Position numbers and translations under genes: made by a program. From Smithella sp. (GTDB taxonomy: Bacteria; Desulfobacterota; Syntrophia; Syntrophales; Smithellaceae), in NCBI GenBank assembly GCA_050011015.1, contig JBEKJX010000013.1, positions 1 to 38,824 of the forward strand: DNA of 38,824 bases. Reading direction: 5' to 3'. The notes under the pieces were generated by a model that worked only from the letters and a program-made list of their open reading frames with translations, had not been told where the DNA came from and made no database searches. Positions 4,860-38,498 of the stretch are shown here, piece by piece; position 1 is the stretch's first letter, and each line of letters starts with the position of its first letter.

Positions 4860-4878
4860 TCATGCACAGACAAGAAAA

Positions 4879-5050
4879 TAAGATTTAAGTAATTAAGGAT
4901 TAAGTAATTAAGGGTGAAGGGTGAAACGTGAAGCACTTTTGTCACTTCGAACGAATGTGAGAAGTCCTTAAGATTCCTCACGGGTCTGCGGCGGTTCGGA
5001 ATGGCATTTTTAAGTTTTAAGTTCAACGTAGAACATAGAACGTTTTAAGG
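4879..5050. repeat. Intergenic TTAAG-rich / GTGAAG-rich repeat element, copy 1 of 3
   Basis: Reads taagatttaagtaattaaggattaagtaattaag, then gggtgaagggtgaaacgtgaag, then scattered cttaag/ttttaag units. Lies between convergent genes. Related to the elements at 27239-27348 and 29274-29330. Confidence 0.6.
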
Positions 5051-5104
5051 ACGGAGTGACTGCAGATAGCCGATAGCTGAAAGCCTGTTGTGATCCGGCC
5101 ATGT

Positions 5105-6184
5105 TTAGCGTGATTTTAGATATTTTTCCACCCGATGAAGGCCTTCCTCGATCTTATCCACATCGAGGGCATAGGAGAAGCGCACACGATCCGGCGCCCC
5201 GAACCACTCGCCCAGATAGGTGATAACCTGATAGTCATAAAACATATCCCGGACAAAGCCTCGCGGATTATCGATCTTCGGAAGAACATAAAAGGCCCCT
5301 TCCGGCTTCCAGAGATCAAGCCCGAGCTCGACCATGCCTTTGTAAATCATGTCTCTGCGCGATTCCCAGATGATGAGCTGCTCGTCAATATAGCGCTTGG
5401 GCACCGTCGTGGCGGTATAGGCCATTTCCTGAGCGATGATGCTTGTGTTCATGGAAGTATGCGACTTCATTTCAATGACCGCCTTCACCAGTTCCTTATC
5501 CAGCGACCAGAGGTACCCGACCCGCAGGCCCGTCATGGCAAAAGTTTTTGAAAATGAATTGATGGTGACCACATGATGTCCTTTGATCAGATAGTTTTCC
5601 CGGACATAAATCAGATCCTTGTAAACCTCATCGGACAGGATATAGACACCATACTGTTCAGTAATTTTCTCAATAGCCTTCAGAGTCTCTATCGCCTCGA
5701 CCCGGCCGGTGGGGTTTGAAGGCGAATTAATGAGCACGGCCTTGCAGTCTTTGATCTTGCTTGCAAAATCCTCATACACAATCCGGCCTTCCTTCAGATC
5801 TGTGAAGACAGGTTCGAATCCGGCATACTGGGCCAGGGGAAGATAGGAATAATAATAGGGGCGGCAAATCAGACATTTCGGTTTTTTGCCGTTCTTTTTC
5901 ATATGGAGCCAGGCAATGGCTCTCAGCGACAGATCAAGGGCTTCGGAGGCGCCATTGGTAATCACAAAGCTGTCCGCCGTGGAGCGCGGATACTGTTTAG
6001 CCAGGGCATCCCGCAGGTTCTTCTGGCCCTGGATGAGCCCGTATTTAAAGCCGCTGTAATCCGGCAGGATGTCGTAAACCTCTTTTGGCGGCGGCAGATC
6101 GGGCTGACCGGAGCCGAACGAAATGATTCCCTCGCCCCCAACGCCAATGAACATAGCCGCCGTCATATTTTTATCTTTACTCAC
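5105..6184 (-). CDS. Class I/II pyridoxal-phosphate-dependent aminotransferase
   Basis: PLP-lysine motif SFSKTFAMTGLRVGY, plus SPSNPTG and ITNGASEAL blocks. The ORF-track start at 6211 is TTG. GTG at 6184 has SD AGAGG 7 nt upstream. ATG at 6166 is an alternative start. Confidence 0.85.
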   Translation of the reverse strand: MSKDKNMTAAMFIGVGGEGIISFGSGQPDLPPPKEVYDILPDYSGFKYGLIQGQKNLRDALAKQYPRSTADSFVITNGASEALDLSLRAIAWLHMKKNGKKPKCLICRPYYYSYLPLAQYAGFEPVFTDLKEGRIVYEDFASKIKDCKAVLINSPSNPTGRVEAIETLKAIEKITEQYGVYILSDEVYKDLIYVRENYLIKGHHVVTINSFSKTFAMTGLRVGYLWSLDKELVKAVIEMKSHTSMNTSIIAQEMAYTATTVPKRYIDEQLIIWESRRDMIYKGMVELGLDLWKPEGAFYVLPKIDNPRGFVRDMFYDYQVITYLGEWFGAPDRVRFSYALDVDKIEEGLHRVEKYLKSR

Positions 6185-6261
6185 GATTTTACCTCTGTAA
6201 AAAATGTGCAATTTTAAATGCTAACACATAATAATTTATCATTCCATGGAATTTATTTTAC

Positions 6262-6292
6262 TTGACATGATATAATAGACTGGTCTATTATA
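6262..6292. promoter_or_regulatory. Putative promoter (TTGACA, 18-nt spacer, TATTAT) overlapped by a perfect 10-bp inverted repeat TATAATAGAC-tg-GTCTATTATA; likely TetR operator
   Basis: Palindrome at 6271-6292 read directly. It sits in the divergent intergenic region between the aminotransferase (minus) and the TetR gene (plus). TetR-family operators are typically such palindromes. Confidence 0.5.
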
Positions 6293-6456
6293 TAGGTGAT
6301 TTAAGCGCATGGCAAAAGAACAAGGACAGTGGAGAGATTACCACAACGTCTTAGAGACGTCCCGTAATGACAGACGATTTAGAATCCTTCATCCACCTTT
6401 GTCACATAGGCGAGGTATTATTACTTAGAGGATTATAACATAAGGGATTTAAGCTT

Positions 6457-7041
6457 ATGGCAAAAGAAGCAACAAGACAGGCTATCATCCAAAAAGGCGC
6501 GAAGCTCATTCATTCTAGGGGATTTGTAAACACCGGTATTCAGGAAATTATTTCTGCCGCCGGAGTTCCCAAGGGATCATTTTATTTTTATTTCAAGAAT
6601 AAGGATGATTTTGGCGCTGGTGTGATCGACCATTTTTCCGATCTTGTCATCTCATGGTTCGAAAAGTACAGCCAAGACCATACTCTTCCACCGCTTGTCA
6701 GATTGGAACGTTTCTTTGATGACAGTAATCACTTTTACGAAAAGATCGGGTTCACCTGCGGATGCCCCATTGGCAATCTTTCGCAGGAAATGAGCGATTT
6801 GAGCGAGCCGATGCGGAGCAAACTTTCTGACGCTTATAGCCGCATTCGTTCGATTATGAAAAACTGTATTGCCGAAGCCAGGGAGCAGGGGGCTATCAGT
6901 TCAAAAGAAGATGCCGAAGAGTTGGCTGTTTTTGTTCTCAACGGTTGGGAGGGTGCTCTCATTGATATGAAGGTTTCGAAAAGTATCCGCCCGCTCATTA
7001 TATTTAAAAAGGTGCTGTTCGAAAAGATTTTGACCGCATAA
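6457..7041 (+). CDS. TetR/AcrR family transcriptional regulator
   Basis: N-terminal HTH region IIQKGAKLIHSRGFVNTGIQEIISAAGVPKGSFYFYFKNKDD is a classic TetR_N signature. Length is 194 aa. SD is AAGGGA. Confidence 0.9.
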   Translation: MAKEATRQAIIQKGAKLIHSRGFVNTGIQEIISAAGVPKGSFYFYFKNKDDFGAGVIDHFSDLVISWFEKYSQDHTLPPLVRLERFFDDSNHFYEKIGFTCGCPIGNLSQEMSDLSEPMRSKLSDAYSRIRSIMKNCIAEAREQGAISSKEDAEELAVFVLNGWEGALIDMKVSKSIRPLIIFKKVLFEKILTA

Positions 7042-7093
7042 TTTAATAAACTGGAACGATCTCCAGATCACAGACAAAACTGGGAGGATAGTC

Positions 7094-8182
7094 ATGAATG
7101 TTTATGAAGAATTGAGAAGCGTGTTGGATTCGCATCCCACGACAGCGCCGGAATCACCGGCGATATTGGAAATCCTGAGCATCCTATTTACCCCTGACGA
7201 AGCGGTTCTGGCGGCTAAGATGAGTTACAAGCCCTGGCCCGTCGGGAAAATAGCCCAGGCTGGATCGCTGCCGGAAGGCGAGGCGGAAAAGCTTCTCGAA
7301 TCAATGGCCGACAAGGGGATTATCTTCTCTAAGAACAAGGAAGGGAAAAAACTCTACGGTTTGGTGCCGCTTATTCCCGGCATCTTTGAGTTCCCTTTCA
7401 TGAAAATCAAGACGGTTACTTCTCCGATGGAAAAGAGACTGGCCGGGCTCTGGGAGGAATACCATCATGAGGCCCTGGGCGCGTCATTTTCGGGAAATCC
7501 GACGCCGCTTATGCGGGTCATTGCAGTTGATAAGGCGATTCCCGCGGAAAACCGCGTTCATCCCTACGAGGAGGTGAAATACTTTATCAGCAATGCCGCT
7601 TTTATCGCGCTGGCGGACTGCGCATGCCGGATCAGCGTCGGCAAATGCGACAGGCCGAAGGACGTTTGCCTCATCTTTGACGGAGCCGGTGAGTTTCTGG
7701 TGGAGCGCGGTTTCGCCCGCCAGATCACCAAGGAAGAGGGGATGCAGGTGCTCGACCGCGCGGAGAAGGCCGGGCTTGTCCATACCAGTAATAACAGCGC
7801 CGACAGGGCCGGAATGATCTGCAATTGCTGTCCCTGCTGCTGCACCGTTCTGCGCGGCAGGACGCAGGTGAAACATCCCCACGCCTTTGAGACCAGCCGT
7901 TTCGAAGCCAGAATCATAAGCGATGAATGCACCGGCTGCGGCGTCTGCGCCGAGGAGAGGTGTCCGGTAAAGGCTATAGAAATAATAGATGATCTTGCCG
8001 TGGTGAATGTAGCGGAATGTATCGGCTGCGGACTGTGTGTCACGGGCTGTCCGGTGGACGCAATTGAACTCGTCGAGCGGAAGTCGATTCCGGCAGTGCC
8101 CGGCACAACCGTTGAGATGGCGCTTCAGGTCGTTCAGGAAAAGGGCAGGATAGACAATTTTGCCAAAATTATGCAGCGCTGA
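7094..8182 (+). CDS. Uncharacterised Fe-S protein with C-terminal 2x[4Fe-4S] ferredoxin domain and an unusual Cys-dense central motif
   Basis: Ferredoxin motifs CTGCGVCAEERCP and CIGCGLCVTGCP. Upstream Cys cluster DCACRISVGKCDRPKDVC...CNCCPCCC. SD GGGAGG lies before the ATG. Confidence 0.8.
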   Translation: MNVYEELRSVLDSHPTTAPESPAILEILSILFTPDEAVLAAKMSYKPWPVGKIAQAGSLPEGEAEKLLESMADKGIIFSKNKEGKKLYGLVPLIPGIFEFPFMKIKTVTSPMEKRLAGLWEEYHHEALGASFSGNPTPLMRVIAVDKAIPAENRVHPYEEVKYFISNAAFIALADCACRISVGKCDRPKDVCLIFDGAGEFLVERGFARQITKEEGMQVLDRAEKAGLVHTSNNSADRAGMICNCCPCCCTVLRGRTQVKHPHAFETSRFEARIISDECTGCGVCAEERCPVKAIEIIDDLAVVNVAECIGCGLCVTGCPVDAIELVERKSIPAVPGTTVEMALQVVQEKGRIDNFAKIMQR

Positions 8183-10238: not shown

Positions 10239-11357
10239 CTACGGCTTTTTTTTAGCTGTGATGATTTTCGTCTGCTCCGGTTTTGCTTTTTTGCTATGAG
10301 TTTCCTTTATCAAGGCTTTAGTTTTTGCTTGGTCGTAGCCGGGAGGATATAAAATTAAATCGGAAGTCTTTAGTATTTGCCATAAATTCTTGTCTTGAAA
10401 AGCAATAGTTCCGCCTCCACGTTTTTCCTGGGAGATCATACGGTTAATGTCCCCGACACACACCCAGGGACTTTTCTTGTCCGCATTTTTTGTTATACCC
10501 CATTTTGCGTGGTCCTTAGTTTCCGGCCATGCCCAACCTCCGAATGATCGTAGATCAATGAACTTAATATCGAAAGTTTTATAAATGCCGTCGCTATCAA
10601 GGTTAGGCGCAACCAGCCCACGTATCCATGTAACAACATCCATGTCATCTCCTAACGTGGGACCAACCAGATCATTCCAAAAATCTCTGCCCCATTCACG
10701 GTTCTTGGCAATGACCTTGAATTTCAAACCGCCTTTCGTATTTCCGCTTACAATATTTGTCCCTCCCGGGACGGTCTGACTCAAGGGAAGGCTAAGGTCG
10801 TAGAGCGGATCATTTTTACTCACAGATGCGGGAATATGAGGCATATAAGTTTGCGGTTGCTGATACGTGGCCATCTGCACGGCAATTTGCCTCATGGTAG
10901 CAATATCCAGAGACAGGCAAAGAAATGTCTGGCCATACATGGGAGTGGGCATTGTCTCCGAATCAGGATCGGCATATTTAGGCCAGGAATGAAGAAGCCA
11001 GTAAGCGCTGTTTGTCGCGGTATCAAAGGCGAGGACACCCTTGGTATGACCTAATTCGCCGTTGTCTTTTCCGCCGCCGGCATCTGCGGGTTTCTCATCG
11101 TTATAGAGAATCCATCCGGTCGTGGCTCCCGGATTTTTAAAAACACTATCAAGGGTAAAATGGAGTGCGCCTTTATCCTGCCGCAGATCGTTGGCCGACA
11201 TTTTGGCATTTCCAACTGTGGGGTCATAGTATAAATATTCGTATCCGGTGGCGGTATTGCCGCCCTTGGCGCCTTTCGTGTCGGTAAGTTTCGGCACCTT
11301 GTAAATAAACCAATAATCAACACTTTTACCTGTTTCATTCAATGCTGAAATTTTCAT
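10239..11357 (-). CDS. Deoxyribonuclease II (DNase II) family protein, PLD-superfamily nuclease
   Basis: Blocks matching eukaryotic DNase II: GKSVDYWFIYKVPKL, ILYNDEKP...GHTKGVLAFD, YWLLHSWPKY, YGQTFLCLSL, DHAKWGI, WVCVGDINRMISQEKRGGGTIAF. The ORF-track start at 11378 is TTG. ATG at 11357 has SD AAGGGGGAG 7 nt upstream. Confidence 0.9.
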   Translation of the reverse strand: MKISALNETGKSVDYWFIYKVPKLTDTKGAKGGNTATGYEYLYYDPTVGNAKMSANDLRQDKGALHFTLDSVFKNPGATTGWILYNDEKPADAGGGKDNGELGHTKGVLAFDTATNSAYWLLHSWPKYADPDSETMPTPMYGQTFLCLSLDIATMRQIAVQMATYQQPQTYMPHIPASVSKNDPLYDLSLPLSQTVPGGTNIVSGNTKGGLKFKVIAKNREWGRDFWNDLVGPTLGDDMDVVTWIRGLVAPNLDSDGIYKTFDIKFIDLRSFGGWAWPETKDHAKWGITKNADKKSPWVCVGDINRMISQEKRGGGTIAFQDKNLWQILKTSDLILYPPGYDQAKTKALIKETHSKKAKPEQTKIITAKKKP

Positions 11358-11466
11358 AATCCAACTCCCCCTTTTCAATTATTTTTTTGTTGAAGATTTC
11401 TTTTGAAGATGAGAAATTGTAAGAACAGCAGTTTGGTAAGTTAAGTTGATATTTATATAAATATCA

Positions 11467-25468: not shown

Positions 25469-27166
25469 TCAGAAGCAGGTTCCCCTGCCTTTGGCGGCGT
25501 CCAGGAGTTTGCAATTTCCCAGTGTACATGCTTTTTGCGCGTCATGACAGCCGTTTTCCATATTCCCCTGATTTAAATAAATAATCGCTCTGTAGTTGTA
25601 AGCATCGGCAAAATCCGGTTTCAGCCGGATGGCTTCATTTAAGTCCTCAAATGCGCGTTGATACTGACCGAGTTTAACGTAAGCAACCCCTCTGTTGTAG
25701 AAGGCAGAGGCATGATTCGGGTTCAGGATGATTGCTTTATTATAATCCTCAATGGCACTTTGGGGCTTATCGAGTCCAAAGTAACCAATTCCTCTATTGT
25801 TGTAGAAATCGGCATTATCGGGGTTCAGCCGGATTGCCTCGTGATAATGATACATAGCTTCCTCAATTTTCCCTTCATCAAACAAGGCAAGACCTAAATT
25901 ATTATGCGCCACAGAATTATCCTTTGTTATCTGCAAGGCATGGCTGAAGAGTTTGATACTGTTTTTCCAGTAACCGCATTGTTGCCATGTTAAAACTGAC
26001 AAGATGGCAAGTAATGCTACACCTGCCGGAAATAAAATCATTTTGCGGATGTTTTCGCGCGGAAACAAAGATGGAATGCCCCAGGCAAGCCCAATGGCAA
26101 TGCCGATGGATGGCAGATAAATATAACGATCGGCCATCGAGTTGTTCCCTACAGGAATGATCCCGATTACAGGCAGCAGAGTTATGGAATACCATAGCCA
26201 TCCAACGAAAAGATACGGCCGACGTTTTATCTTTAAAATGACAGCAACACTGATGATAAGAATCAGAAAAGAAATTCCCAGGACAAGCCAATCAGGAAAT
26301 TGGCCGAAAAAAGGATAGCAAACAGCAAGATCCTTCGGCATAAATGTTTTCTCCAGATAAATTACAAAAGAAACGAGCGCGTTTATGATTCGTGATTCCA
26401 ATGGCAATGGCCAACCTTTTATGTACGCTCCAGGCTGGGCACAAATTGTAACAATAGAAAAAAACGCTGATAGAATAAAAAAAGGTAACTTTTCCTTCAA
26501 CTGCCATAAAACCAAATTAGTTTTATTTTTCAGTGATTTAAAACGTCGCAGCGGCCAGAAATCCAGAAGTATCATTATCACCGGCAGGGTGACAACCATT
26601 GATTTGCTCATAAGTCCGCAAACAAAGCAAAGAAGAACGAGCAAGTATCTTTTTATAACCGGTTTTTCCGTGTAATAAACATAAAAGCATAAAGTCAGCA
26701 TCCAGAAAAACGCGCTTAAGACATCTTTACGTTCGGCTATCCAGGCAACCGATTCCACATGCAACGGATGAAGCGCAAAAAATGCGGCGACAAAGGCGCT
26801 TTTCCAGATTGCTCCTGTCATGCGGTTAAAAAGCAAGAATAGCAATAGAGTGCTCATGATATGCAAGATAAGGTTGGTCAGGTGATAACCGCCTGCATTC
26901 AGGCCATAAAGCTGATAATCAAGCATCAGAAACAGCCATGTCAAAGGATGCCAGAATTCGGCATAGGTCGTGCTGAACGCCCAGCGAAATCCTTCCCGAG
27001 TTATTCCAGAATGGATATGAATGTTATCGGTGACGTAAACTTGATCATCCAGATAAACAAAACCGAATTGATTCACCTGCCAGAAAACGGCAATTGTAGC
27101 CAATATCAAAACGATATAAATGATCAGTTTCTGCCTTTGAGTGCTAATCTCTATCTTGTTCAACAT
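25469..27166 (-). CDS. TMTC-like membrane glycosyltransferase (GT-C/DUF1736-type N-terminal domain) fused to C-terminal TPR repeats, paralogue 1
   Basis: First-loop acidic motif YLDDQVYV, GGYHLTNLILH, and ALHPLHVESVAWIAERKDVLSAFFW (DUF1736-like). About 10 or more TM spans. TPRs AIRLNPDNADFYNNRG and similar. Cys-rich tail GCHDAQKACTLGNCKLLDAAKGRGTCF. Confidence 0.85.
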   Translation of the reverse strand: MLNKIEISTQRQKLIIYIVLILATIAVFWQVNQFGFVYLDDQVYVTDNIHIHSGITREGFRWAFSTTYAEFWHPLTWLFLMLDYQLYGLNAGGYHLTNLILHIMSTLLLFLLFNRMTGAIWKSAFVAAFFALHPLHVESVAWIAERKDVLSAFFWMLTLCFYVYYTEKPVIKRYLLVLLCFVCGLMSKSMVVTLPVIMILLDFWPLRRFKSLKNKTNLVLWQLKEKLPFFILSAFFSIVTICAQPGAYIKGWPLPLESRIINALVSFVIYLEKTFMPKDLAVCYPFFGQFPDWLVLGISFLILIISVAVILKIKRRPYLFVGWLWYSITLLPVIGIIPVGNNSMADRYIYLPSIGIAIGLAWGIPSLFPRENIRKMILFPAGVALLAILSVLTWQQCGYWKNSIKLFSHALQITKDNSVAHNNLGLALFDEGKIEEAMYHYHEAIRLNPDNADFYNNRGIGYFGLDKPQSAIEDYNKAIILNPNHASAFYNRGVAYVKLGQYQRAFEDLNEAIRLKPDFADAYNYRAIIYLNQGNMENGCHDAQKACTLGNCKLLDAAKGRGTCF

Positions 27167-27356: not shown

Positions 27357-29198
27357 TTACCGTTTAAGGCAGTATCCCCTGCCTTTAGCCGCTTCGAGGA
27401 GTTTGCAATCTCCCAGTAAACATGATTTTTGCGCATCATGGCAGCCGGTTTCGATATTCCCCTGATTTAAAGAAATAATCGCTCTGTTGTTGTAGGCATC
27501 GGCAGAATCCGGTTTCAACCGGATGGCTTCATTAAAGTCGTCAAATGCACTTTTTTGCCGGCCAAGTTTAACGTAAGCAACCCCTCTGTTGTAGTAGGCA
27601 TCGGCAAAATTCGGGTTCAGGATGATTGCTTTATTATAATCCTCGACAGCGCTTTGGGGCTTATCGAGTCCAAAGTAACAAATTCCTCTATTGTTGTAGA
27701 AATCGGCGCCATCGGGATTTAACCGGATTGCCTCGTTATAATGATACATAGCTTCTTCGATTTTTCCGTTTTTAAACAGGGCGGAACCTAAACTGTTATG
27801 CGCCAGATAATTATCCTTTGTTACCTGCAAAGCATGACTAAAGAGAGAGGCGCTGTCCCTCCAGTAACCGCATTGCCGCCATGTTAAGACTGCCATGATG
27901 GATAGAGCGGCTATTGAGGCCGGGAATAATATCTTTTTACGTATGTCTTCGCTATTAATTAAAAGCGGAATGCCCCAGGCCAGCATAACGGCAAGGCCGA
28001 TAGAGGGCAGGTAATGGTAGCGGTCGGCCATCGAGTATGGCATTACTAACGACACCTGAATTATCCCTATGACCGGTAGAATGGTTGTCGCGTACCAAAG
28101 CCATCCCACGAATAAGTACGGCAATCGTTTTGCCGTGACAATAACGGCAGCGCTGATAACAATAATCACAAGAGCGGCTCCAAAAACATGCCATACCGGA
28201 AGTTGATCGGAAAAAGGATAATAATAAGCCATGTCACTCGGCATAAATGTTTTTGCCAGATATGTCACAAAAGCAACCGGCGCGTTTGCAAGCCGGGAGC
28301 TAAGGGAAAGAGCTTTTAACGATGTCTTTTGATCCTCTGGAATATAAAGCGTGATGATAACAAGAATTGTCGACAGAATAAGAAATGGTATTTTTTCCCA
28401 TAGCTGCCATAAAGGGATAATTCCCGCGATTCCGGTTTCCGGTAATTTCCGGGAATCGGCTGAAGAAATGTTTTTCTTTAAAGCAACTTTGTTTTCTTTG
28501 TTCTTCTTTTTTCCTTTATTTGCGGCGACGGAAATATTTTCCGGTTCTTTAGCTGCTATTTCCCGCGATTGAAGGCGATTCAGCGGCCAGTAATCCAGAA
28601 GGATCATCACAAAGGGCAGGGTGACAACCATTGGCTTGCTCAAAAGAGCCAATACAAATGAAAAAAGAACAGGAAGGTATCTTTTTATAACCGGTTTTTC
28701 CGTGTAATAGACATAAAGGCACAAAGTCAGCATCCAGAAAAAGGCGCTCAGAACATCTTTGCGTTCAGATATCCAGGCAACCGATTCCACATGCAGCGGG
28801 TGAAGCGCGAAAAAAGCGGCGACAAAGGCGCTACGCCAGACAGCTCCGGTCATGCGGTTAAAAAGCCAGAACAGCAGCAGAGCGCTTAGTATATGCAGGA
28901 TAAGGTTGGTTAGATGATAACCGCCGGCATTCAAGCCATGAAGTTGATAATCGAACATGAAGGAAAGCCAAACGAGGGGGTTCCATAAACCAAAAAATTT
29001 TGTGCTGAACGCCCAGCGAAATCCATCAAAAGTGATTCCGGACTGAATGTGAATGTTCTCTAAGACATAAACGTGATCGTCGAAATTTACGTAACCATAT
29101 TGATTCACTTGCCAGTAAACGGCAAGCGTAACAACAGCCAAAATAATATAAACAATCAGTTTCTGTCTTTGCGGACGAATACTTACCTTATTTAACAT
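27357..29198 (-). CDS. TMTC-like membrane glycosyltransferase + TPR, paralogue 2 (with a Lys-rich ~48-aa insertion)
   Basis: Same motifs as paralogue 1 (NFDDHVYV, ALHPLHVESVAWISERKDVLSAFFW, Cys tail GCHDAQKSCLLGDCKLLEAAKGRGYC). Extra loop QSREIAAKEPENISVAANKGKKKNKENKVALKKNISSADSRK. Confidence 0.85.
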   Translation of the reverse strand: MLNKVSIRPQRQKLIVYIILAVVTLAVYWQVNQYGYVNFDDHVYVLENIHIQSGITFDGFRWAFSTKFFGLWNPLVWLSFMFDYQLHGLNAGGYHLTNLILHILSALLLFWLFNRMTGAVWRSAFVAAFFALHPLHVESVAWISERKDVLSAFFWMLTLCLYVYYTEKPVIKRYLPVLFSFVLALLSKPMVVTLPFVMILLDYWPLNRLQSREIAAKEPENISVAANKGKKKNKENKVALKKNISSADSRKLPETGIAGIIPLWQLWEKIPFLILSTILVIITLYIPEDQKTSLKALSLSSRLANAPVAFVTYLAKTFMPSDMAYYYPFSDQLPVWHVFGAALVIIVISAAVIVTAKRLPYLFVGWLWYATTILPVIGIIQVSLVMPYSMADRYHYLPSIGLAVMLAWGIPLLINSEDIRKKILFPASIAALSIMAVLTWRQCGYWRDSASLFSHALQVTKDNYLAHNSLGSALFKNGKIEEAMYHYNEAIRLNPDGADFYNNRGICYFGLDKPQSAVEDYNKAIILNPNFADAYYNRGVAYVKLGRQKSAFDDFNEAIRLKPDSADAYNNRAIISLNQGNIETGCHDAQKSCLLGDCKLLEAAKGRGYCLKR

Positions 29199-29383: not shown

Positions 29384-30934
29384 TTACAGTAATAATTGAT
29401 TGTCCATGGATCGCGTCTCCCCTATACTGGTAACATAAATTGCCGGTTGACCGAGAAGAGGACAATGTGACTCACACAGCCCGCAGCCAATGCATGTTTC
29501 CAGATCAACGTGCGGTTGATTTAAATACGATACGTTTCCGTTTCTGTTTATCACTTTTGCCTTTTCCAGCCAGATCGCTTTCTTCGGGACAGGACAAACC
29601 TCCTGACAAACAATACATGGCGTAGAGTGGGCATAAGGCAGGCATCTTCCTTTATCAATCAGAGCCGTGCCTATTTTTATTTTTTCTTTTTCCCGCAGTT
29701 CCAGTTTTTTTATCGCACCTGTCGGGCAGACCTGGCCGCAGAGAGTGCAGTGATGTTCACAGTAGCCAATTCGCGGTACCAGCACCGGTGACCAGATTCC
29801 CTCGATTCCGGCCTCCAGAAATGCCGGTTGAAGACCATTGGTAATACAGACCTTCATGCATTCGCCACATTTTACGCAACGGGCAAGGAATTGTTTTTCG
29901 TCGAGAGAACCGGGCGGCCGTATTAGTTTAGGCGTGGATGCGCCCGCCTGTTTGTTGATGGCTGTAATCCTGATCAGTGGAACGGCAACGAGACCGGACA
30001 AAATCATTCCTAGGATCCTTCTTTTGCCGAGATCAACAAAAGCAGCCGGCTGCGTCTTTTTAAAAAATCCAAACCGAACGGCATTTTGAGGGCAGAGATC
30101 ATCACAATTCATGCAAACCAGGCACTCCGTATTATGCCAGTTTTCTTTTTTATCGGGAGAGGCGTTCCCCTGACAATCAAAAGTACAGGCTCCGCAGGAA
30201 TTGCAGCCTTCGCTGACCTGTCGCGTTAAGAAGGAATAACGGGAGAGCAGGCCCAGAAGCGCCCCCAGAGGACAGAGATATTTGCACCAGAAACGTTTTT
30301 CGAGAAGGTTCAGTCCCAGAATGATGAAGAACAATAATCCCAGAAAAACGCTCTGAAGAAAAAACAGCTGCTGGAAAGGAAGCCAGAGTTTTTTAAAAAG
30401 CGTATAGATAAATTCGGAAATGCTGCTCAGAACAGGAATGTTTAAATTGTAAAACATATCAAATACAGCCCGCGTTGCATAACTTGCCGCCGGGTAAACT
30501 GACAACGACAGTGAACGAATCAAAAGTGAAACAGGGTCGAATACTCCTGTGAATTGCAGGGAAAAGAGGGACATGGTAATCAAAAATATCAAGAGGCAGT
30601 ATTTCAACCAATGCCAGTTTAAAGGTATTCTGGGTGGTCGCTTCTTTTGCAGCGTACCGACAATGTTGTTAAGCGTTCCCAGAGGACATACCCAGCCGCA
30701 GAAAACCCTGCCCATGATAATAGTAACAGCGATCACCAAAATGGCCAGGAAAAATGTATTATACCATGCGTGGCTGGAAAGGATTGTGGTGATGAAAATC
30801 AGCGGGTCGGCATCCAGAAATATTTTAACGGGATAGCCGAGTTCATCGGCTCCTTTTGATTCAGTCTGCAGAAAGAGCCACAAAAATGTCAGCAAAAAAA
30901 GTCCCTGTGTTGCTATGCGGATTTTTCTAATCAT
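29384..30934 (-). CDS. Membrane-bound polyferredoxin of the NapH/NosR-C-terminal type (multiple 4Fe-4S motifs)
   Basis: N-terminal RIATQGLFLLTFLWLFL. Two CxxxCPxG membrane-associated motifs (FCGWVCPLGTL, WCKYLCPLGAL). Ferredoxin motifs CNSCGACTFDC, CLVCMNCDDLCP, CVKCGECMKVC, CTLCGQVCP, CIVCQEVCP, CIGCGLCESHCP. Confidence 0.85.
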   Translation of the reverse strand: MIRKIRIATQGLFLLTFLWLFLQTESKGADELGYPVKIFLDADPLIFITTILSSHAWYNTFFLAILVIAVTIIMGRVFCGWVCPLGTLNNIVGTLQKKRPPRIPLNWHWLKYCLLIFLITMSLFSLQFTGVFDPVSLLIRSLSLSVYPAASYATRAVFDMFYNLNIPVLSSISEFIYTLFKKLWLPFQQLFFLQSVFLGLLFFIILGLNLLEKRFWCKYLCPLGALLGLLSRYSFLTRQVSEGCNSCGACTFDCQGNASPDKKENWHNTECLVCMNCDDLCPQNAVRFGFFKKTQPAAFVDLGKRRILGMILSGLVAVPLIRITAINKQAGASTPKLIRPPGSLDEKQFLARCVKCGECMKVCITNGLQPAFLEAGIEGIWSPVLVPRIGYCEHHCTLCGQVCPTGAIKKLELREKEKIKIGTALIDKGRCLPYAHSTPCIVCQEVCPVPKKAIWLEKAKVINRNGNVSYLNQPHVDLETCIGCGLCESHCPLLGQPAIYVTSIGETRSMDNQLLL

Positions 30935-31025: not shown

Positions 31026-31928
31026 TCAGATATTTATTTTTTTAATTCTTAATCCGGCAATGTCCATGCTGCCGAGTCCGGCTTTGTGTCCTGCTACGAC
31101 ATAGCCGAGATTTGTCCCTTTCAAACCGAAGAGTGTGGCGCCGAAAGCGTCGACGGCCACCTGATCCCTTCCTGCAATGACTGTATTGAGTTGCCTGACA
31201 TCGGCAAGGTCGCCTCCCTGCGGTCCGTTTGCAGTCAGTATGCGCACCGCGTCAAGAATGATCAGCGCGGGCTTGACGGCCATGGCCAGATCCACCAGAC
31301 TGCCGTTGATGCTCTGGTGTATCCTTCCTCGTGAACTGCCCATAATTCCCATCAGGTTCTTCATTCCCAGAGTAAGAGTGGACAGGCCGTGTGTTTTGGC
31401 GATAGGAATATTAATAAACTTGTCCGCCTCGAGTGCTTCGGTATAAAAAGGCCATGATTTCAAGGCAACACCGGCTAATTTTACTTCACGGAATTTTCTA
31501 TCATCTATATAGCTAACAATTCCGCCCGCGGCAGTGGCTGCATCCAAAATGCCGCTTTGTTTATAGCAGCGCCGCGGATCGACAACACTATGGTCGAAAA
31601 CCTTAACCTGTTTTGCCCCTGCTTCGTAACACAAAGTGATCACTGCCGAGACTACTTCCGGATTGGTTGTTGCCGCATATGCCGGCAGCCTGTCCCACCC
31701 GATATTCGGTTTAACGACCACAATATCTCCCCTGGAGATGAAAGCTTTGATTCCGCCTAAAGCATCGATGGCCGCTTTTGTTATTTGGGCAGGTGAAAGG
31801 CCGTGAACTGCGACAAGGTCTGATTTTTCCGCGGCTTCCAGAGTTTTGAAAAATAAGTTTGAAGCGCCCGGTATGGCAAAAGCCGCGCCGGCGATAACAG
31901 TGGTTTTGAGAAAGTTCCTGCGATTCAT
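31026..31928 (-). CDS. Tat-signal DUF362-family protein (300 aa)
   Basis: Start trimmed to the ATG at 31928, giving MNRRNFLKTTVIAGAAFAIPGAS (canonical twin-arginine signal). DUF362-like core DIVVVKPNIGWDR...INIPIAKTHGLSTLTLGMKNLMG. Confidence 0.8.
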   Translation of the reverse strand: MNRRNFLKTTVIAGAAFAIPGASNLFFKTLEAAEKSDLVAVHGLSPAQITKAAIDALGGIKAFISRGDIVVVKPNIGWDRLPAYAATTNPEVVSAVITLCYEAGAKQVKVFDHSVVDPRRCYKQSGILDAATAAGGIVSYIDDRKFREVKLAGVALKSWPFYTEALEADKFINIPIAKTHGLSTLTLGMKNLMGIMGSSRGRIHQSINGSLVDLAMAVKPALIILDAVRILTANGPQGGDLADVRQLNTVIAGRDQVAVDAFGATLFGLKGTNLGYVVAGHKAGLGSMDIAGLRIKKINI

Positions 31929-32034: not shown

Positions 32035-32982
32035 TCAACCGCCCGCATCGGAACCGGTTCGTTTACTCATCTGTTCGATAAATTGTCTGGCCAGAGAATT
32101 ATTTTTGACCCTGACCGCGCCGATGATGTAACGTCCCGACTGCCGGGCCACTACGCCGCCATACAAGGGATCAACCGCAGTGATCATCCTTTGATTCGCC
32201 TTTCCGGTCAATTGAATGCTTCCGGTCTCAGCTTTCAGATAAGCATAGTATTGATCAAAAACCCTGTGGGCATCAGCCGGCGTATCCTCGTGTATTGCAA
32301 ATATCTGCATCTTTTCATCCTGCGCCACGGCATCTGCTATCAGGCCTTTGCGAAAGAACGCATACCCGAGCAGACTTTGGGCAAGATACCGTTCGCTCTT
32401 TGGCGCAAGCGCAGGAATCTTCAGAATCTCCAGTTCCCTGGGCTCGCCTGCTCCCGCCGGAAGATTTTTGGAGATAGCCCGGGCGCATGCCAGCAATGTG
32501 TCCTTCGGGAGACTTGTTTCTCCGGAGACTTGCAACTTTATAAAATATCTGTCCTGATAAAAAATTAACTGCGAAGGCGACACAAATCCTTCGGCGCCTA
32601 TGGCGACCCAATTATCACTTGTCTTGCGGTAGTTGGAATAAATTCCAAAAGCATCAAGCACAGAGGCCATTCTGTAGACATCGGCATCAATGGCCAAATC
32701 CTGATTCTTCTTATTGATATAATTTGCCGAAGCCAGAACGTCGAACCCGTAGGATAAGTAGAGCTCGGCTTCTCCATCGATATGATTAAACAGAGTATTC
32801 CTGTCGTAAAATTCGACCGCTCCCCCGATGGCCCATTCTCCGGAAAATCCCGGTCCGGAAAACACATCTTTGATTGCCGGTTGGGTAGCCCGGGCGGGAC
32901 AAGACATCATCATGATCAACAGGGCAAAGACAAATGCCGAAATTGCCGTCAGGATGCCTGATCGTCCCGGGGATGATATCAT
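32035..32982 (-). CDS. Secreted protein or lipoprotein of unknown function
   Basis: Start trimmed to MISSPGRSGILTAISAFVFALLIMMMSCPARA, a signal peptide with a possible lipobox Cys. An alternative ATG lies at 33057. The ORF-track start at 33288 would overlap the upstream gene by 224 nt. Confidence 0.6.
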   Translation of the reverse strand: MISSPGRSGILTAISAFVFALLIMMMSCPARATQPAIKDVFSGPGFSGEWAIGGAVEFYDRNTLFNHIDGEAELYLSYGFDVLASANYINKKNQDLAIDADVYRMASVLDAFGIYSNYRKTSDNWVAIGAEGFVSPSQLIFYQDRYFIKLQVSGETSLPKDTLLACARAISKNLPAGAGEPRELEILKIPALAPKSERYLAQSLLGYAFFRKGLIADAVAQDEKMQIFAIHEDTPADAHRVFDQYYAYLKAETGSIQLTGKANQRMITAVDPLYGGVVARQSGRYIIGAVRVKNNSLARQFIEQMSKRTGSDAGG

Positions 32983-33064
32983 GACATCCCCGAGACACTG
33001 TCGAAGCTCAAAGCGATAGCCGGTCAAAGACGGCCTGATATTATAATGATCGTACATGTTTTTT

Positions 33065-34213
33065 CTATGCCAATAATTTTCTGGCTTGCGCCATCTTTGT
33101 CGGAATATCAAGGCCGTTGACACACTTTGCCGCACAAGTCTGACAGGTAAGACATGCGGAGGCTGAGGCAGCCGCGGGAATTTCACGGTAAGTAGACCGG
33201 GAAAGTTCCATGTTTTTGTATGCTTCTCCGTACATGACGCACCGATTGATCGTGCTGATTTCCACACCTTTGGAGCAGGCAGGTTCACACTTTCCGCAAA
33301 AGTGGCAGTAATAGGGCTTTACGGCATCGCCGTAACGTTTCAGGATAAGTTTGTCGAAGTAACTTAATTTCAGACCCATCACCCCTATGTCTTCTCTAAG
33401 TTCCGCCAGATTCCGCATGCCGGGGATTGCCGCCGTGACATTTGTATCCTGAAGCGCCCATTTAAGGGCTGCCCGATGAGGACTGATGGGGCCAAGCTGA
33501 TCCGTTTGGTAACCGCCGGCCTGGGTTTTCATCGCGATGATGCCGATTTTGTGAAGGGCGGCTTTCGCGATGGCTTCCTTCAAATCGTTGCCGCTCTTGA
33601 AATTATAAGCCACCAGAGCTGTATCAAAAAATTTATCTTTATCTTCCATTAAAGCATTGAGCACCTGCACCTGGTTTGTATGCGTGGTCACCCCGAAGAA
33701 ACGCGCCTTTCCCTGCTGTTTCAGTTTTACCAGCGCTTCCCTGATTTCCGGAGAAAAAATCCTGACTTTATCGGTAAGGTTGTGCAGTTGGATGACATCT
33801 AAATAATCGGTATCGAGCGCTTTAAGGCTTGTTTCCACGTCCTTGAAAATGGCTTCTTTTGTTATGGAGTCGGGCAGGATCTTTGTTGCGACATATACCT
33901 TATCGCGTCTGCCTTTTAATGCCCGGCCCACGATTTCCTCATTCTTTCCGCCCATATATTTACGTGCCGTATCGACATAGTTGACACCATGATCGAAAGC
34001 AATTTCCAAAACCTCCGGTTCCGGTGTTAACATCGCGCCAAAGCTTACAATCGTAATCTTCAGGCCTGTCCGGCCAAGTATTCTGTAAACGGGTGCGGGA
34101 AAGACGAAGGGTTCCGTTACTGTTTTCTCCAGAATTTGGGCGAAAGCGCTCGACTCTATCAGGGTTGATGTTGTTACTATCACACCGGACTTCAAGAAAT
34201 CTCTTCTGTTCAT
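33065..34213 (-). CDS. Aldo/keto reductase-family oxidoreductase with twin-arginine signal and a C-terminal Cys-rich (Fe-S) domain
   Basis: MNRRDFLKSGVIVTTSTLIESSAFA Tat-type signal. AKR core with VDTARKY (Asp/Tyr), ATK (Lys) and QLHN (His). C-terminal CHFCGKCEPAC and CLTCQTCAAKC. Confidence 0.85.
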   Translation of the reverse strand: MNRRDFLKSGVIVTTSTLIESSAFAQILEKTVTEPFVFPAPVYRILGRTGLKITIVSFGAMLTPEPEVLEIAFDHGVNYVDTARKYMGGKNEEIVGRALKGRRDKVYVATKILPDSITKEAIFKDVETSLKALDTDYLDVIQLHNLTDKVRIFSPEIREALVKLKQQGKARFFGVTTHTNQVQVLNALMEDKDKFFDTALVAYNFKSGNDLKEAIAKAALHKIGIIAMKTQAGGYQTDQLGPISPHRAALKWALQDTNVTAAIPGMRNLAELREDIGVMGLKLSYFDKLILKRYGDAVKPYYCHFCGKCEPACSKGVEISTINRCVMYGEAYKNMELSRSTYREIPAAASASACLTCQTCAAKCVNGLDIPTKMAQARKLLA

Positions 34214-34502: not shown

Positions 34503-35681
34503 GTGAAAATATTATATTATGACTGTTTTTCCGGTATCAGCGGCGATATGAATCTGGGCGCCATGATTGATCTTGGAGTTCCGCTTGCGTATCTCACAGG
34601 CGAACTCAAAAAAGTTGATATAGACCCCTATGAGATATTAATGCATTCGGATAAGCGTAAGGGAATCGCGGGCACACGGATCGAAGTCGCCATTTTGCCG
34701 CACGATCCCTCACACGGGCATCGCACATTTCATGACATCTCCGGATTGATTCAACAAAGCGGCCTGTCTGAAAATGTAAAAATGATAAGCCTGAAAATCT
34801 TTGAGAAACTTGCCAGGGCAGAGGCGCACATTCACAGTCAGGAAATGGAAAATGTTCACTTCCACGAAATCGGAGCCGTCGATTCCATCATTGATATCGT
34901 CGGTGCCGCCGTTTGTCTCGATTATTTTAAGGTAGATCGGATTATGTCATCTCCTGTGCAGGTGGGAGGAGGCTTTGTAAAATGCGCTCATGGTATTCTG
35001 CCCGTTCCCGCGCCGGCGACGGCGGAGATATTAAAAGGCATCCCGGTAAAATCCGGTCTGGTTCCCTTTGAAACCACAACGCCGACGGGGGCGGCCATCC
35101 TCGCGGCCACAGTGGACAACTTTACGGACAACATAAATATCATCGCCGGGAAAATCGGATACGGCATCGGGCAGAGGGACACGGAGGTTCCGAATGTCCT
35201 GAGGGTTTATCTTGGTGAAATGGATAATCCCGCCTTTGATGAAGACGTTGAGGTAAAGGAAGCCTATCTGGTGGAATGCAATATCGACGATATGAATCCG
35301 GAACTTTACGGTTGGATCCTTGATGCCCTGTTCGAAAAAGGAGCATACGACGCTTACCTTGCCCCCATCATCATGAAGAAATCGCGTCCGGCTGTAAAGA
35401 TAAGCATCCTCTGCGGCGCAGGAGAGCTTAAAGACATCGAGGAAATCCTCTGGCTGCAAACGACAACATTCGGTTTACGAGTCGCAAAGGTCCGTAAAAA
35501 AATGTTGCGCAGGGACTTTTCAACACAACTCACGAAGTACGGCGAAGTCTCCGTCAAGAACGGCTATTTCCGGGGAAAGAAAATCAAATCCAAGCCGGAA
35601 TATGAAGACTGCCGGAAGCTGGCCGGCGAAAAAGGAGTCGGCATCAAGGATATATATGACAGCCTGGATAAGAATGACTGA
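34503..35681 (+). CDS. larC: LarC, nickel insertase for the nickel-pincer nucleotide (NPN) cofactor (DUF111 family)
   Basis: GTG start with SD AAGGGGAAAG. MKILYYDCFSGISGDMNLGAMIDLG, HFHEIGAVDSIIDIVG, and a C-terminal EYEDCRKLA block. Single uninterrupted ORF. Confidence 0.88.
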   Translation: MKILYYDCFSGISGDMNLGAMIDLGVPLAYLTGELKKVDIDPYEILMHSDKRKGIAGTRIEVAILPHDPSHGHRTFHDISGLIQQSGLSENVKMISLKIFEKLARAEAHIHSQEMENVHFHEIGAVDSIIDIVGAAVCLDYFKVDRIMSSPVQVGGGFVKCAHGILPVPAPATAEILKGIPVKSGLVPFETTTPTGAAILAATVDNFTDNINIIAGKIGYGIGQRDTEVPNVLRVYLGEMDNPAFDEDVEVKEAYLVECNIDDMNPELYGWILDALFEKGAYDAYLAPIIMKKSRPAVKISILCGAGELKDIEEILWLQTTTFGLRVAKVRKKMLRRDFSTQLTKYGEVSVKNGYFRGKKIKSKPEYEDCRKLAGEKGVGIKDIYDSLDKND

Positions 35682-36493
35682 TGAATCCGGATGAAAAGTA
35701 CAAAAAGCTGCTTGATTATCTGGCCTCCCTGCAATCCGGCATTGTTGCCTTATCGGGTGGAGCAGATAGTTCTTTTCTGCTTTCGGCCGCAAGCGATGCT
35801 CTGGGGGAAAGGGTGATGGCTGTTACGGTTTCCACACCCTACATATCGAAGCAGGAAATCATGGATGCGGCCCGGACGGCCGGGGGAATGGGGGTTAAGC
35901 ATAAGCTGCTCGAATTGCCGTTGATTGATGAAATAAAACTCAACCCCGAAAACCGTTGCTATCTGTGCAAACATTACCTGTTCTCCGTTTTGAAAGAAGA
36001 AGCGAAGAAAGAGGGAATGCGTTTTGTTATGGATGGGACGAATGCCGACGACCTTCATGATTACCGGCCGGGGATCAGGGCTTTAAAAGAACTGAATATT
36101 GTGAGTCCTTTCCTGAATCAGAAATGGACTAAAAACGACATACGGAATGCGGCAAAGAAGAGTGGTCTCGGCAATTGGAATAAACAGCCGGGGGCATGTC
36201 TGTTATCCAGAATGCCTTATGGACATGAAATTACTCTTCATGAACTGGAAATGATCGAAAAAGCCGAACAGTATTTAACCGGCATGGGTTTTGAATTTGT
36301 CAGGGTCCGCAGTTATGGAAATCTGGCGCGGATTGAGGTTCTGCCCGAAAACAGAAACAGATTCTTCTTCGAAGGTGTTCTGGATGAAATATCAGGCGCT
36401 CTCAGGGAGATAGGATATCTTTTTGTAACCATGGATCTTGAGGGTTATCGGATGGGCGGCATGAATCGTGAACTATCAGGGAAAAACAATTAA
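35681..36493 (+). CDS. larE: LarE, ATP-dependent sacrificial sulfur transferase (PP-loop ATP pyrophosphatase)
   Basis: PP-loop ALSGGADSSFLL. Conserved Cys loop QPGACLLSRMPYG. The start overlaps the larC stop (TGATG). Confidence 0.88.
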   Translation: MNPDEKYKKLLDYLASLQSGIVALSGGADSSFLLSAASDALGERVMAVTVSTPYISKQEIMDAARTAGGMGVKHKLLELPLIDEIKLNPENRCYLCKHYLFSVLKEEAKKEGMRFVMDGTNADDLHDYRPGIRALKELNIVSPFLNQKWTKNDIRNAAKKSGLGNWNKQPGACLLSRMPYGHEITLHELEMIEKAEQYLTGMGFEFVRVRSYGNLARIEVLPENRNRFFFEGVLDEISGALREIGYLFVTMDLEGYRMGGMNRELSGKNN

Positions 36494-36504: not shown

Positions 36505-37254
36505 ATGAATAAAGATCAATTGCAGAAATTTCTGGAAAAAGTAAGAGACGGACAAATCACCGTAGAGGAAGGCATCGCCTCTCTTAAAGATTATTATTAC
36601 GCGGATTTAGGATGCGTCAAGCTTGACACTCATCGGGAAACGCGCGTGGGTTACCCGGAGGTGATATACTGTCCCGGCAAGACCATTGATCAGGTAAAAA
36701 CGGTGGTTCGGGCCATGTCGGAGAGAAACTCCAATATCCTCGCGACACGGGCGGACGAGAATGTGTTTAATGCGGTCCATGAGGTTTGTCCCGACGCCGT
36801 CTATCATTCAACGGCAAAAATCATCACGGTCAAAAAAAAGGATTTGGACATACCGGACAGTTACATCGCCGTCGTCACGGCCGGAACATCGGACATTCCG
36901 GTGGCGGAGGAAGCGTACGTTACGGCGGAATTTTTCGGTAACCGTGTCGAAAGAATAGTAGATGTCGGTGTGGCGGGCATTCATCGCCTGTTCCACAATA
37001 TGGACAAGATCAGGGGGGCGCGGGTAATTATTGTTGTTGCCGGAATGGAAGGGGCTCTTCCCAGCATCATTGGCGGGCTGGTGGATAAACCGGTTATTGC
37101 CGTGCCGACCAGTGTGGGTTACGGCGCCAGTTTTGGCGGTATCTCGGCTCTTTTGACCATGCTCAACAGTTGCGCCAGCGGTGTCTGCGTGGTTAATATC
37201 GATAACGGCTTCGGAGCGGGATACGTGGCCGGCATGATTAACCGTTTGAAATGA
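36505..37254 (+). CDS. larB: LarB, nicotinic acid adenine dinucleotide carboxylase/hydrolase (PurE-like)
   Basis: PurE-like C-terminal half VAVVTAGTSDIPVAEEA...VVAGMEGALPSIIGGL...VIAVPTSVGYG, with the N-terminal extension typical of LarB. Confidence 0.88.
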   Translation: MNKDQLQKFLEKVRDGQITVEEGIASLKDYYYADLGCVKLDTHRETRVGYPEVIYCPGKTIDQVKTVVRAMSERNSNILATRADENVFNAVHEVCPDAVYHSTAKIITVKKKDLDIPDSYIAVVTAGTSDIPVAEEAYVTAEFFGNRVERIVDVGVAGIHRLFHNMDKIRGARVIIVVAGMEGALPSIIGGLVDKPVIAVPTSVGYGASFGGISALLTMLNSCASGVCVVNIDNGFGAGYVAGMINRLK

Positions 37255-37352: not shown

Positions 37353-38498
37353 TCAACGATTTAGATTTGTATGTATTATTTTTGCGCCGTCAAAACCGTT
37401 AAATTTTGTCGAAGAGGCAATACTGTACGCGCCGATATTTTCAGTAAGCAGATAATCTCCGATTTCCAGATTTCCCGGAAGCGAAACGGATTGGGATATT
37501 TTATCGAAACTGTCGCAAGTTTGTCCGACGACGGCACAGATTTCTTTTTCTCCATTCCTGAATGCGGTGAAATTGGGAAGCCAATGATCAAAGATCACAC
37601 CGGAAAAGGTATGATAAACGCCATCATTGATGTAATAGAAAATCTTCCCGTCTCTTCTGGATTTTCCGATGATTTCGGTGATCAGCGTTGCCGCGGTTGC
37701 CGCGATGAATCTTCCGGGTTCGGCTATAATTTCGACATCCGGAGGGAAGAGTCTTTGACATTCGGAATTGATGAGGCTTGCCAACTTTTCAAATTCTGGA
37801 ATCTGAGCATCATAGGGCACGGGAAAACCTCCGCCGATATCTATGATCTTCAAGCCGTATCCCTTTTTCCTGGCATTATTGATTATTTCAGATGTGATGG
37901 CAAGCGCTGCCGTATAATTGTCAAAATTTGTGCACTGGCTTCCCACGTGAAAACTCAACCCTTCAACCACAAGACCGGCATCGTGCGCCTGACGTAAAAG
38001 CTTCCCCGCATCTCCCGGCTCCGCTCCGAATTTCGAACTCATCTCAACTTGCGAACCTGAATCCGGCACCTTCAATCTTAGAATCAGGCCGGCCGTATTA
38101 CAGCAGGCCTTGATTTTCTTCAGTTCATCGCTATTGTCGAAGGTGACAAGGGGCCGGTATCTTTTTATCTTGCTCAGTGTTTTTTTGTCTTTGATGGTAT
38201 TGGAAAAAATAATCTTATCCCAGATAAAAAATTCCTGATCTTCTTCTTCGAAATGCTTGATATATTCGTAGATCTGCATGAATTCGTTGTAGGATGCGAC
38301 ATCAAAACTGGATCCTTCCAGAAAAAGGGTTTTGATGATCTCCGGATGGGTATTGGCCTTGACCGCGTAATAGCATTGGACCCTTGGCAGATTTTTCTTA
38401 AAGGTCCGGTAATTGCGCCTCAGCTTTTTGTGATCCATGATGAACAGGGGAGTCCCATGCTGTTTTATCAGTTCGGCAGTCTGTTTTTTCATTCTCAT
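37353..38498 (-). CDS. Type III PLP-dependent decarboxylase (ornithine/lysine/arginine decarboxylase-like, alanine-racemase fold)
   Basis: YAVKAN PLP-lysine motif, SFHVGSQ, IDIGGGFP, and EPGRF blocks. Confidence 0.85.
   Translation of the reverse strand: MRMKKQTAELIKQHGTPLFIMDHKKLRRNYRTFKKNLPRVQCYYAVKANTHPEIIKTLFLEGSSFDVASYNEFMQIYEYIKHFEEEDQEFFIWDKIIFSNTIKDKKTLSKIKRYRPLVTFDNSDELKKIKACCNTAGLILRLKVPDSGSQVEMSSKFGAEPGDAGKLLRQAHDAGLVVEGLSFHVGSQCTNFDNYTAALAITSEIINNARKKGYGLKIIDIGGGFPVPYDAQIPEFEKLASLINSECQRLFPPDVEIIAEPGRFIAATAATLITEIIGKSRRDGKIFYYINDGVYHTFSGVIFDHWLPNFTAFRNGEKEICAVVGQTCDSFDKISQSVSLPGNLEIGDYLLTENIGAYSIASSTKFNGFDGAKIIHTNLNR

Follow-up and report, generated by a model that had tools for sequence, protein, structure and literature searches.

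A 38,824-nucleotide contig of Smithella sp. (JBEKJX010000013.1, assembly GCA_050011015.1; this whole stretch of DNA is referred to below as the window) encodes a DUF362 protein that is a member of the LarA superfamily (Pfam clan CL0471) and, as judged from its structural model, has the fold of the N-terminal domain of LarA, a racemase that depends on the nickel-pincer nucleotide (NPN). The DUF362 open reading frame (ORF; 31026..31928, minus strand, 300 aa) is a single-domain LarA N-terminal-domain relative with a nearly invariant His–Lys–His motif, in which K190 is the equivalent of Lys184, the NPN tether of LarA, and H204 the probable equivalent of the Ni ligand His200. Judging from these sequence features and the gene neighbourhood, we put the chances at about even that the protein is a periplasmic, Fe–S-linked, NPN-binding relative of LarA.

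The Pfam DUF362 model (PF04015) covers residues 70–264 of the ORF (model positions 1–199 of 200, E = 3e-52, 177.9 bits against a cut-off of 24), with residues numbered from the ATG at 31928. An alternative in-frame ATG at 32048 would add 40 codons; because close homologues are all 300 aa long and all begin at the RRxFLK motif of the twin-arginine translocation (Tat) signal, the start is likely to be at 31928. Residues ~1–35 (MNRRNFLK..., 31824..31928, minus strand) form the predicted Tat signal peptide. The Pfam TAT_signal model scores it at 19 bits, below the threshold of 22.7; the MNRRNFLK motif is plain in the sequence, and R3 and the RRxFL consensus are kept across an alignment of 138 DUF362 sequences. 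The protein contains no Fe–S motif and stops ~36 residues past the DUF362 domain. It also matches the NCBIfam “Npun_F2552 family protein” (NF052623) at 80 bits, far under the 500-bit cut-off, indicating that a named sister family exists within DUF362.

Structure and curated family models bear out the proposal, made in the original prediction, that DUF362 is homologous to the LarA N-terminal domain. A Foldseek search of the PDB with an AlphaFold 2 (AF2) model of the ORF (predicted local distance difference test score, pLDDT, 95.2) gave 19 matches at E ≤ 1e-3, and all 19 were LarA-family structures (5HUQ, 6C1W, 8EZF, 2YJG, 7S91, 6D6Z, 4NAR, 9EIA, 9EID, 9Q3J, and 9Q3K), with E values of 1e-7 to 2e-4, 207–276 aligned columns, and a query-normalised TM-score of ~0.5; the first match after them was an unrelated protein. 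The Pfam DUF362 model likewise scores true LarA at 26–27 bits, over its own 24-bit cut-off. Sequence-based searches of the PDB, by phmmer with the ORF and by hmmsearch with a 138-sequence profile, did not find LarA, and hhalign against a shallow LarA alignment gave 35 columns only (E = 0.27). DUF362 and DUF2088/Lar_N are both placed in clan CL0471, and DUF362 served as the outgroup of a LarA tree (PMC11770544). The homology itself is thus already on record; the residue equivalence described below is new.

Translation confirmed H180, K190, and H204 at the codons given in the original prediction (31389–31391, 31359–31361, and 31317–31319, respectively, minus strand), and the minus-strand segment 31317–31391 reads HGLSTLTLGMKNLMGIMGSSRGRIH. 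The bare pattern H-x9-K-x13-H is by itself without significance: among the window's 77,644 six-frame positions there is a single match, and by our estimate from composition one to two are expected. It is conservation across the family that makes the motif non-random. A DUF362 search matched 6,429 clusters (50% clustering) at E ≤ 1e-3, and an alignment was made of the ORF and 137 homologues with 36–93% identity (4 close homologues and 133 representatives at 50% clustering). This alignment shows no variation at H180 or K190, and conservation of at least 90% at H204, K73, P74, N75, D112, R200, and D226.

In a relaxed form, [K/R/P]-x-H-x9-K followed by a His 10–16 residues after the Lys, the motif is found in 141 of 143 DUF362 sequences (modal spacing 14, usually 13–15), and with a Lys-to-His spacing of 15 in all 120 members of a separate actinobacterial DUF362 subfamily, giving 261 of the 263 members examined. 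The 143 include four distant DUF362 proteins that keep the motif, from plasmid records of Parabacteroides, Streptomyces, Subdoligranulum, and Acetoanaerobium (27–41% identity), two of which carry a fused C-terminal ferredoxin domain, so that the motif spans cytoplasmic ferredoxin-fused forms. That the three residues hardly vary even at 27% identity speaks for a function under selection.

The roles of R75, H108, H174, K184, and H200 in LarA have been described (PMC11770544). The LarA sequence used is identical to 5HUQ chain A. All five residues are invariant in a LarA alignment in the literature numbering, and the LarA residue numbers on which the original prediction was built are correct. For a comparison of register, truncated fragments of both proteins were scanned against the curated Pfam DUF362 model and the model coordinate was read at the cut. 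Window DUF362 fragments cut at H180, K190, and H204 end at model positions 111, 121, and 136, and a LarA fragment cut at K184 also ends at 121. Beyond H200, LarA residues 194 and 201 fall at 130 and 137, placing H200 at 136. H180, at 111, lies ten residues before position 121, where LarA K184 aligns. The three residues are therefore in register with LarA on an independent curated model, which has a Lys-to-His spacing of 15, compared with 16 in LarA and 14 in the window protein. Alignments by hhalign and hmmsearch (not significant, E = 0.27 and 0.06) also put H180 on H174 and K190 on K184. H180 is the counterpart of the catalytic His174. An AF2 model of LarA, made for secondary-structure comparison, was discarded because its pLDDT was <50 over exactly residues 171–220.

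The remaining LarA active-site residues have looser counterparts. LarA H108 extrapolates to position ~45 of the Pfam model, which corresponds to H113 of the window protein, next to D112 (D112–H113, 31590..31595, minus strand); position 112 is Asp or Glu in at least 90% of sequences, and position 113 is variable across the family. LarA homologues with a single catalytic His have been published (PMC12611868). The segment VKPNIGWDRLP, which begins at residue 72, had been likened to the TRP segment of LarA. This likeness is only approximate: both hhalign and extrapolation from the Pfam model put its conserved Arg, R80 (31689..31691, minus strand), no more than one residue away from LarA R75, in a stretch outside the significant hidden Markov model (HMM) alignment. 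R80 reaches at least 90% conservation within the closer subfamily, with Lys or Arg there in distant members, and is a possible counterpart of the phosphate-contacting Arg75.

Upstream of the DUF362 gene, the window carries the genes for NPN synthesis. They comprise larC, with both LarC1 and LarC2 parts (34503..35681, plus strand; Pfam Ni_insertion E = 6e-140, NCBIfam LarC1 and LarC2 over their cut-offs), larE (35681..36493, plus strand; TIGR00268, 285 bits against a cut-off of 150), and larB (36505..37254, plus strand; NCBIfam LarB, 309 bits against 175). The larC–larE–larB genes are divergent from a four-gene minus-strand unit encoding, in order, a Tat-signal aldo-keto reductase (AKR) with two C-terminal Cys4 motifs (33065..34213; PF00248), a DUF6599 protein (32035..33030; PF20244, E = 4e-34), the DUF362 protein, and a membrane polyferredoxin (29384..30934). 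The AKR, as the first gene of the operon, is the gene closest to larC, across a 289-bp intergenic region. The original prediction saw orphan larCEB genes that fit with DUF362. The lar genes are real and no LarA homologue was found in the window, but the AKR in the same operon is equally well placed to use their product.

The polyferredoxin (516 aa) consists of a NapH-like and a NapG/MauM-like half. The N-terminal half has transmembrane segments, two CX3CP motifs, and two Fe–S motifs; the C-terminal half, past a further transmembrane segment, is a NapG/MauM-like domain with four motifs. The protein is matched by Pfam Fer4_5 and dicluster domains and by NCBIfam NapG and NapH models, with all NapG/NapH scores far below the equivalog cut-offs. 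The DUF6599 protein has one N-terminal hydrophobic segment, a likely anchor. The layout of the four-gene unit and the lar genes is kept in Smithella contigs, where the DUF6599 gene calls begin right after the AKR stop codon. DUF6599 accompanies the AKR in the window and in loci L005, L006, and L083, and weak DUF6599 homologues lie upstream of DUF362 in L011, L034, and L169.

Two surveys extended these neighbourhoods, one of 80 species-level genome loci of the Tat-DUF362 subfamily (45–84% identity) and one of metagenome contigs carrying relatives of a Leptospira DUF362, 36 of them at least 8 kb long. A polyferredoxin gene lies 3′ of DUF362 in 77 of the 80 genome loci and in all 38 metagenome loci with enough downstream sequence. 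This near-universal NapH/NapG-like partner, together with the Tat signal, suggests a periplasmic quinone-linked oxidoreductase that is loaded before export.

Lar genes stand next to DUF362 in two further settings. A Leptospira metagenome-assembled genome (L033) has a tight operon DUF362–polyferredoxin–larE–larB–larC with unrelated flanking genes, and neither an AKR nor LarA was found in this 14-kb locus. This operon spans 3178–8006; its larC ORF consists of the LarC1 part only, and the CTP-binding LarC2 domain was not found in the 14 kb. In Streptomyces sp. NBC_01450 (L096), larC–larB–larE–chorismate-binding enzyme–DAHP (3-deoxy-D-arabino-heptulosonate 7-phosphate) synthase lie opposite cyclase–DUF362 on the other strand, and the cluster again yielded neither AKR nor LarA. 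Together with the window lineage, this makes three independent lar neighbourhoods among ~120 loci, against ~0.1 expected by chance (a rough estimate, not a computed statistic). As two of the three contain no rival candidate for the cofactor, they argue for NPN use by at least some DUF362 proteins. In addition, a 2.6-Mb replicon of Acetoanaerobium carries a ferredoxin-fused DUF362 and, 750 kb apart, larB–larC, and a LarA search of this replicon gave no match.

The Streptomyces cluster belongs to a cassette seen in Actinobacteria, Brevibacillus, and a Chloroflexi genome (L096, L099–L102), which contains a DAHP synthase, a cyclase (PF04199), a ~400-aa DUF362, and a chorismate-binding enzyme, to which GATase, aldehyde dehydrogenase, short-chain dehydrogenase/reductase, and ATP-grasp ligases are often added. 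Within these cassettes, larC, larB, and larE occur only in the Streptomyces NBC_01450 copy.

In the mechanism that we propose, LarB, LarE, and LarC, encoded divergently, would produce NPN in the cytoplasm for the DUF362 protein to bind. K190 would tether the cofactor, as Lys184 does in LarA, H204 would give the fourth Ni ligand, H180 would serve as general acid/base, and the basic residue of the DRLP loop may touch the NPN phosphate. The protein would then be exported folded via the Tat system, with its cofactor already loaded; a Tat signal on a protein without an Fe–S motif fits such loading in the cytoplasm. Once in the periplasm, it would trade electrons with the quinone pool via the NapH–NapG-like polyferredoxin, so that its role would be that of a catalytic subunit in a net oxidoreductase, not that of a racemase.

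Several observations weigh against this proposal. The first concern the alignment with LarA. With ten diverse LarA homologues from plasmids and five distant DUF362 proteins added, the profile–profile comparison suggested in the original prediction gave a long alignment, of 175–185 columns, that is not significant (E = 0.06). The equation of H180, K190, and H204 with LarA H174, K184, and H200, which holds on the Pfam DUF362 model, is ambiguous for H200 by hhalign, which puts this residue inside an 18-residue LarA-specific insertion of unfixed position; when the insertion was removed at different positions, the pairing of H204 with H200 was not favoured over the alternatives. The LarA His108 position is not kept as His across the DUF362 family, and KPN...R stands in place of the LarA phosphate motif SDxTRP. 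The LarA C-terminal domain (PF21113) was not found in the ORF, even at E ≤ 10. In LarA this domain closes the active site and contains the substrate-binding Gln295 and Lys298. We also know of no NPN enzyme described as coupled to an Fe–S chain.

The second group concerns the gene neighbourhoods. Within 10 kb of DUF362, lar genes occur in 2 of the 80 genome loci (L005, from the window's own clade, and the Leptospira locus L033), in none of the 36 metagenome contigs, and in 1 of 5 members of the actinobacterial subfamily (Streptomyces L096; the four other members of this cluster type have no lar genes nearby). Lar adjacency is thus confined to ~3 lineages among ~120 informative DUF362 loci. In the window lineage it is seen only where the AKR is also present, and locus L006 keeps AKR–DUF6599–DUF362–polyferredoxin with no lar genes within 10 kb. 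A preference for the three residues in DUF362 proteins that neighbour lar genes, looked for as the original prediction had suggested, is absent: the residues are near-invariant with or without lar genes nearby. The argument from gene neighbourhood is the weaker for it, but NPN binding is not thereby refuted, since those genomes may carry lar genes at other sites. With adjacency rare, the C-terminal domain missing, the second catalytic His not conserved, and the AKR competing for the cofactor, we hold NPN use by DUF362 at about an even chance.

The AKR is at least as good a candidate for the lar product as DUF362. AKRs adjoining larBCE in LarA-less loci are NPN-dependent enzymes, with 427 instances, and in one of them, NphT (PDB 9YEB), H144 is the Ni ligand and K200 the tether (PMC13524815). 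The window AKR matches NphT at E = 3e-13, and in a HMMER alignment to 9yeb_A its GVTTH178 segment aligns with GITGH, placing T176-x-H178 on T142-x-H144, with H178 (33680..33682, minus strand) on the Ni-ligand His144. A candidate counterpart of Lys200 is K229 (33527..33529, minus strand), which, in an alignment to L-galactose dehydrogenase, stands where the canonical strand-7 xSPL motif has its Ser; its alignment to K200 was not obtained, as only the N-terminal 179 residues of 9YEB align. The GxTTHTN and AMK segments of the AKR are conserved in orthologues. The Tat-AKR is thus probably another NPN protein, one resembling NphT. PMC13524815, as we read it, describes no periplasmic, Fe–S-bearing AKR of this type.

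Alternatively, larCEB could serve only this neighbouring NphT-type Tat-AKR, with the DUF362 Lys/His pocket, inherited from an ancestor shared with LarA, put to another use, which could be the binding of another nicotinamide-like or nucleotide cofactor or of a directly bound metal. The AKR belongs to a published family of NPN enzymes found next to larBCE in LarA-less loci (PMC13524815), it combines the 9YEB match and aligned T-x-H motif with a conserved K229 at the strand-7 position and the place closest to larC, and most DUF362–polyferredoxin loci have no nearby lar genes. This explanation nevertheless leaves unexplained the Leptospira operon and the Streptomyces cluster, which contain no AKR or LarA, as well as an in-register, near-invariant tether Lys and Ni-ligand His. 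It must also contend with the AKR–DUF6599 pair, which is joined to DUF362–polyferredoxin in two gene orders (that of the window and L006, and that of L083), suggesting that the four proteins act together. We consider it less likely than the reading above, though far from negligible.

Still less probable, and in our estimate a long shot, is that the residue match is a relic of ancestry without shared function and that the lar neighbourhoods are coincidental; the rarity of lar adjacency and the weak profile–profile statistics would fit such a relic, but it is opposed by how little the three residues vary even at 27% identity and by three lar neighbourhoods where the rough estimate gives ~0.1. 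Lowest of all we place a role for DUF362 as a non-catalytic NPN carrier or chaperone, for export or for handover to the periplasmic AKR, since, although the protein has only the cofactor-holding N-terminal domain of LarA without the substrate-closing C-terminal domain and shares an operon with a likely NPN-dependent AKR, the DUF362–polyferredoxin pair occurs in ~115 loci without an AKR, other DUF362 subfamilies are ferredoxin-fused or lie in biosynthetic clusters, both of which point to a redox catalyst, and the catalytic-type His180 is invariant.

The reading of DUF362 as an NPN-dependent redox enzyme has consequences beyond the window. The family comprises more than 6,000 clusters at 50% identity, in bacteria of many phyla, and we propose, tentatively and with somewhat less than even confidence, that it is a second large branch of nickel-pincer enzymes, in which a LarA-type N-terminal domain holds NPN by its conserved Lys and His and is wired to Fe–S clusters, either of fused ferredoxins or of a NapGH-like partner in the membrane. 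If so, the Ni-pincer would do more than shuttle hydride internally: it would contribute to net redox catalysis connected with electron-transfer chains. NPN biochemistry would be widened to Fe–S-coupled, periplasmic redox enzymes, and the Fe–S-coupled Ni-pincer would be new chemistry. Hundreds of prokaryotes make NPN without LarA, and the users are mostly unidentified (PMC13524815); part of these larBCE-bearing, LarA-less genomes would then be accounted for. A full-text literature search found no paper proposing that DUF362 keeps NPN-binding residues or binds NPN, and searches on how lar genes are distributed in Bacteroidetes yielded nothing of use. To our knowledge, DUF362 appears in the LarA literature only as an outgroup, and the non-LarA NPN users described so far are AKRs and an ornithine cyclodeaminase only.

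Several other genes of the window were noted. An Orn/DAP/Arg decarboxylase gene (37353–38498, minus strand) adjoins larB, and in related Smithella contigs a deoxyhypusine-synthase-like gene precedes the decarboxylase (L001, 2827–5213); these genes next to larB are probably an unrelated polyamine module. Two membrane proteins that are paralogues in tandem (25469–27166 and 27357–29198, minus strand) each have a glycosyltransferase-like N-terminal region and C-terminal tetratricopeptide (TPR) repeats; the copy at 27357–29198, the only one scanned, matches PMT_2 at 23.5 bits, below the Pfam cut-off of 26.1. Farther away, the ORF at 10239–11378 (minus strand) matches the DNase II family (PF03265, E = 2e-74), a family that is mainly eukaryotic.

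One of the closest known systems is LarA itself (Lar_N PF09861 plus LarA_C PF21113; 5HUQ). The two proteins share a homologous N-terminal alpha/beta domain, with the tether Lys, the Ni-ligand His, and one catalytic His in register, and in the window DUF362 adjoins larB, larC, and larE. Unlike LarA, DUF362 lacks LarA_C (300 aa vs. ~424), has KPN...R and V-x-V-x-D in place of SDxTRP and ATGxHR, and does not conserve the second catalytic His. It also has a Tat signal and a NapH/NapG-like Fe–S partner or, in other subfamilies, a fused ferredoxin, with no racemase context.

NphT offers the precedent of a non-LarA NPN enzyme found through larBCE adjacency in LarA-less loci, and the window AKR has the same T-x-H Ni-ligand motif. 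NphT has a TIM-barrel fold, unrelated to that of DUF362, and is cytoplasmic and monomeric without an Fe–S domain, whereas a Tat signal and two Cys4 motifs at the C-terminus mark the window AKR.

The electron-transfer partner finds its likeness in the NapGH quinol dehydrogenase module of periplasmic nitrate reductase, since the polyferredoxin halves match NapH and NapG/MauM. Such a module would suit the passage of electrons between quinol and a catalytic subunit exported to the periplasm by Tat. Here the halves are fused into one polypeptide, and the catalytic partner would be DUF362 rather than a molybdoenzyme. Within the DUF362 family (PF04015), of which the window ORF is a full-length member, the window subfamily is set apart by a Tat signal and a separate polyferredoxin, whereas other members are cytoplasmic with a fused 2x[4Fe–4S] domain (L097, L098) or lie in actinobacterial biosynthetic clusters (L096, L099–L102).

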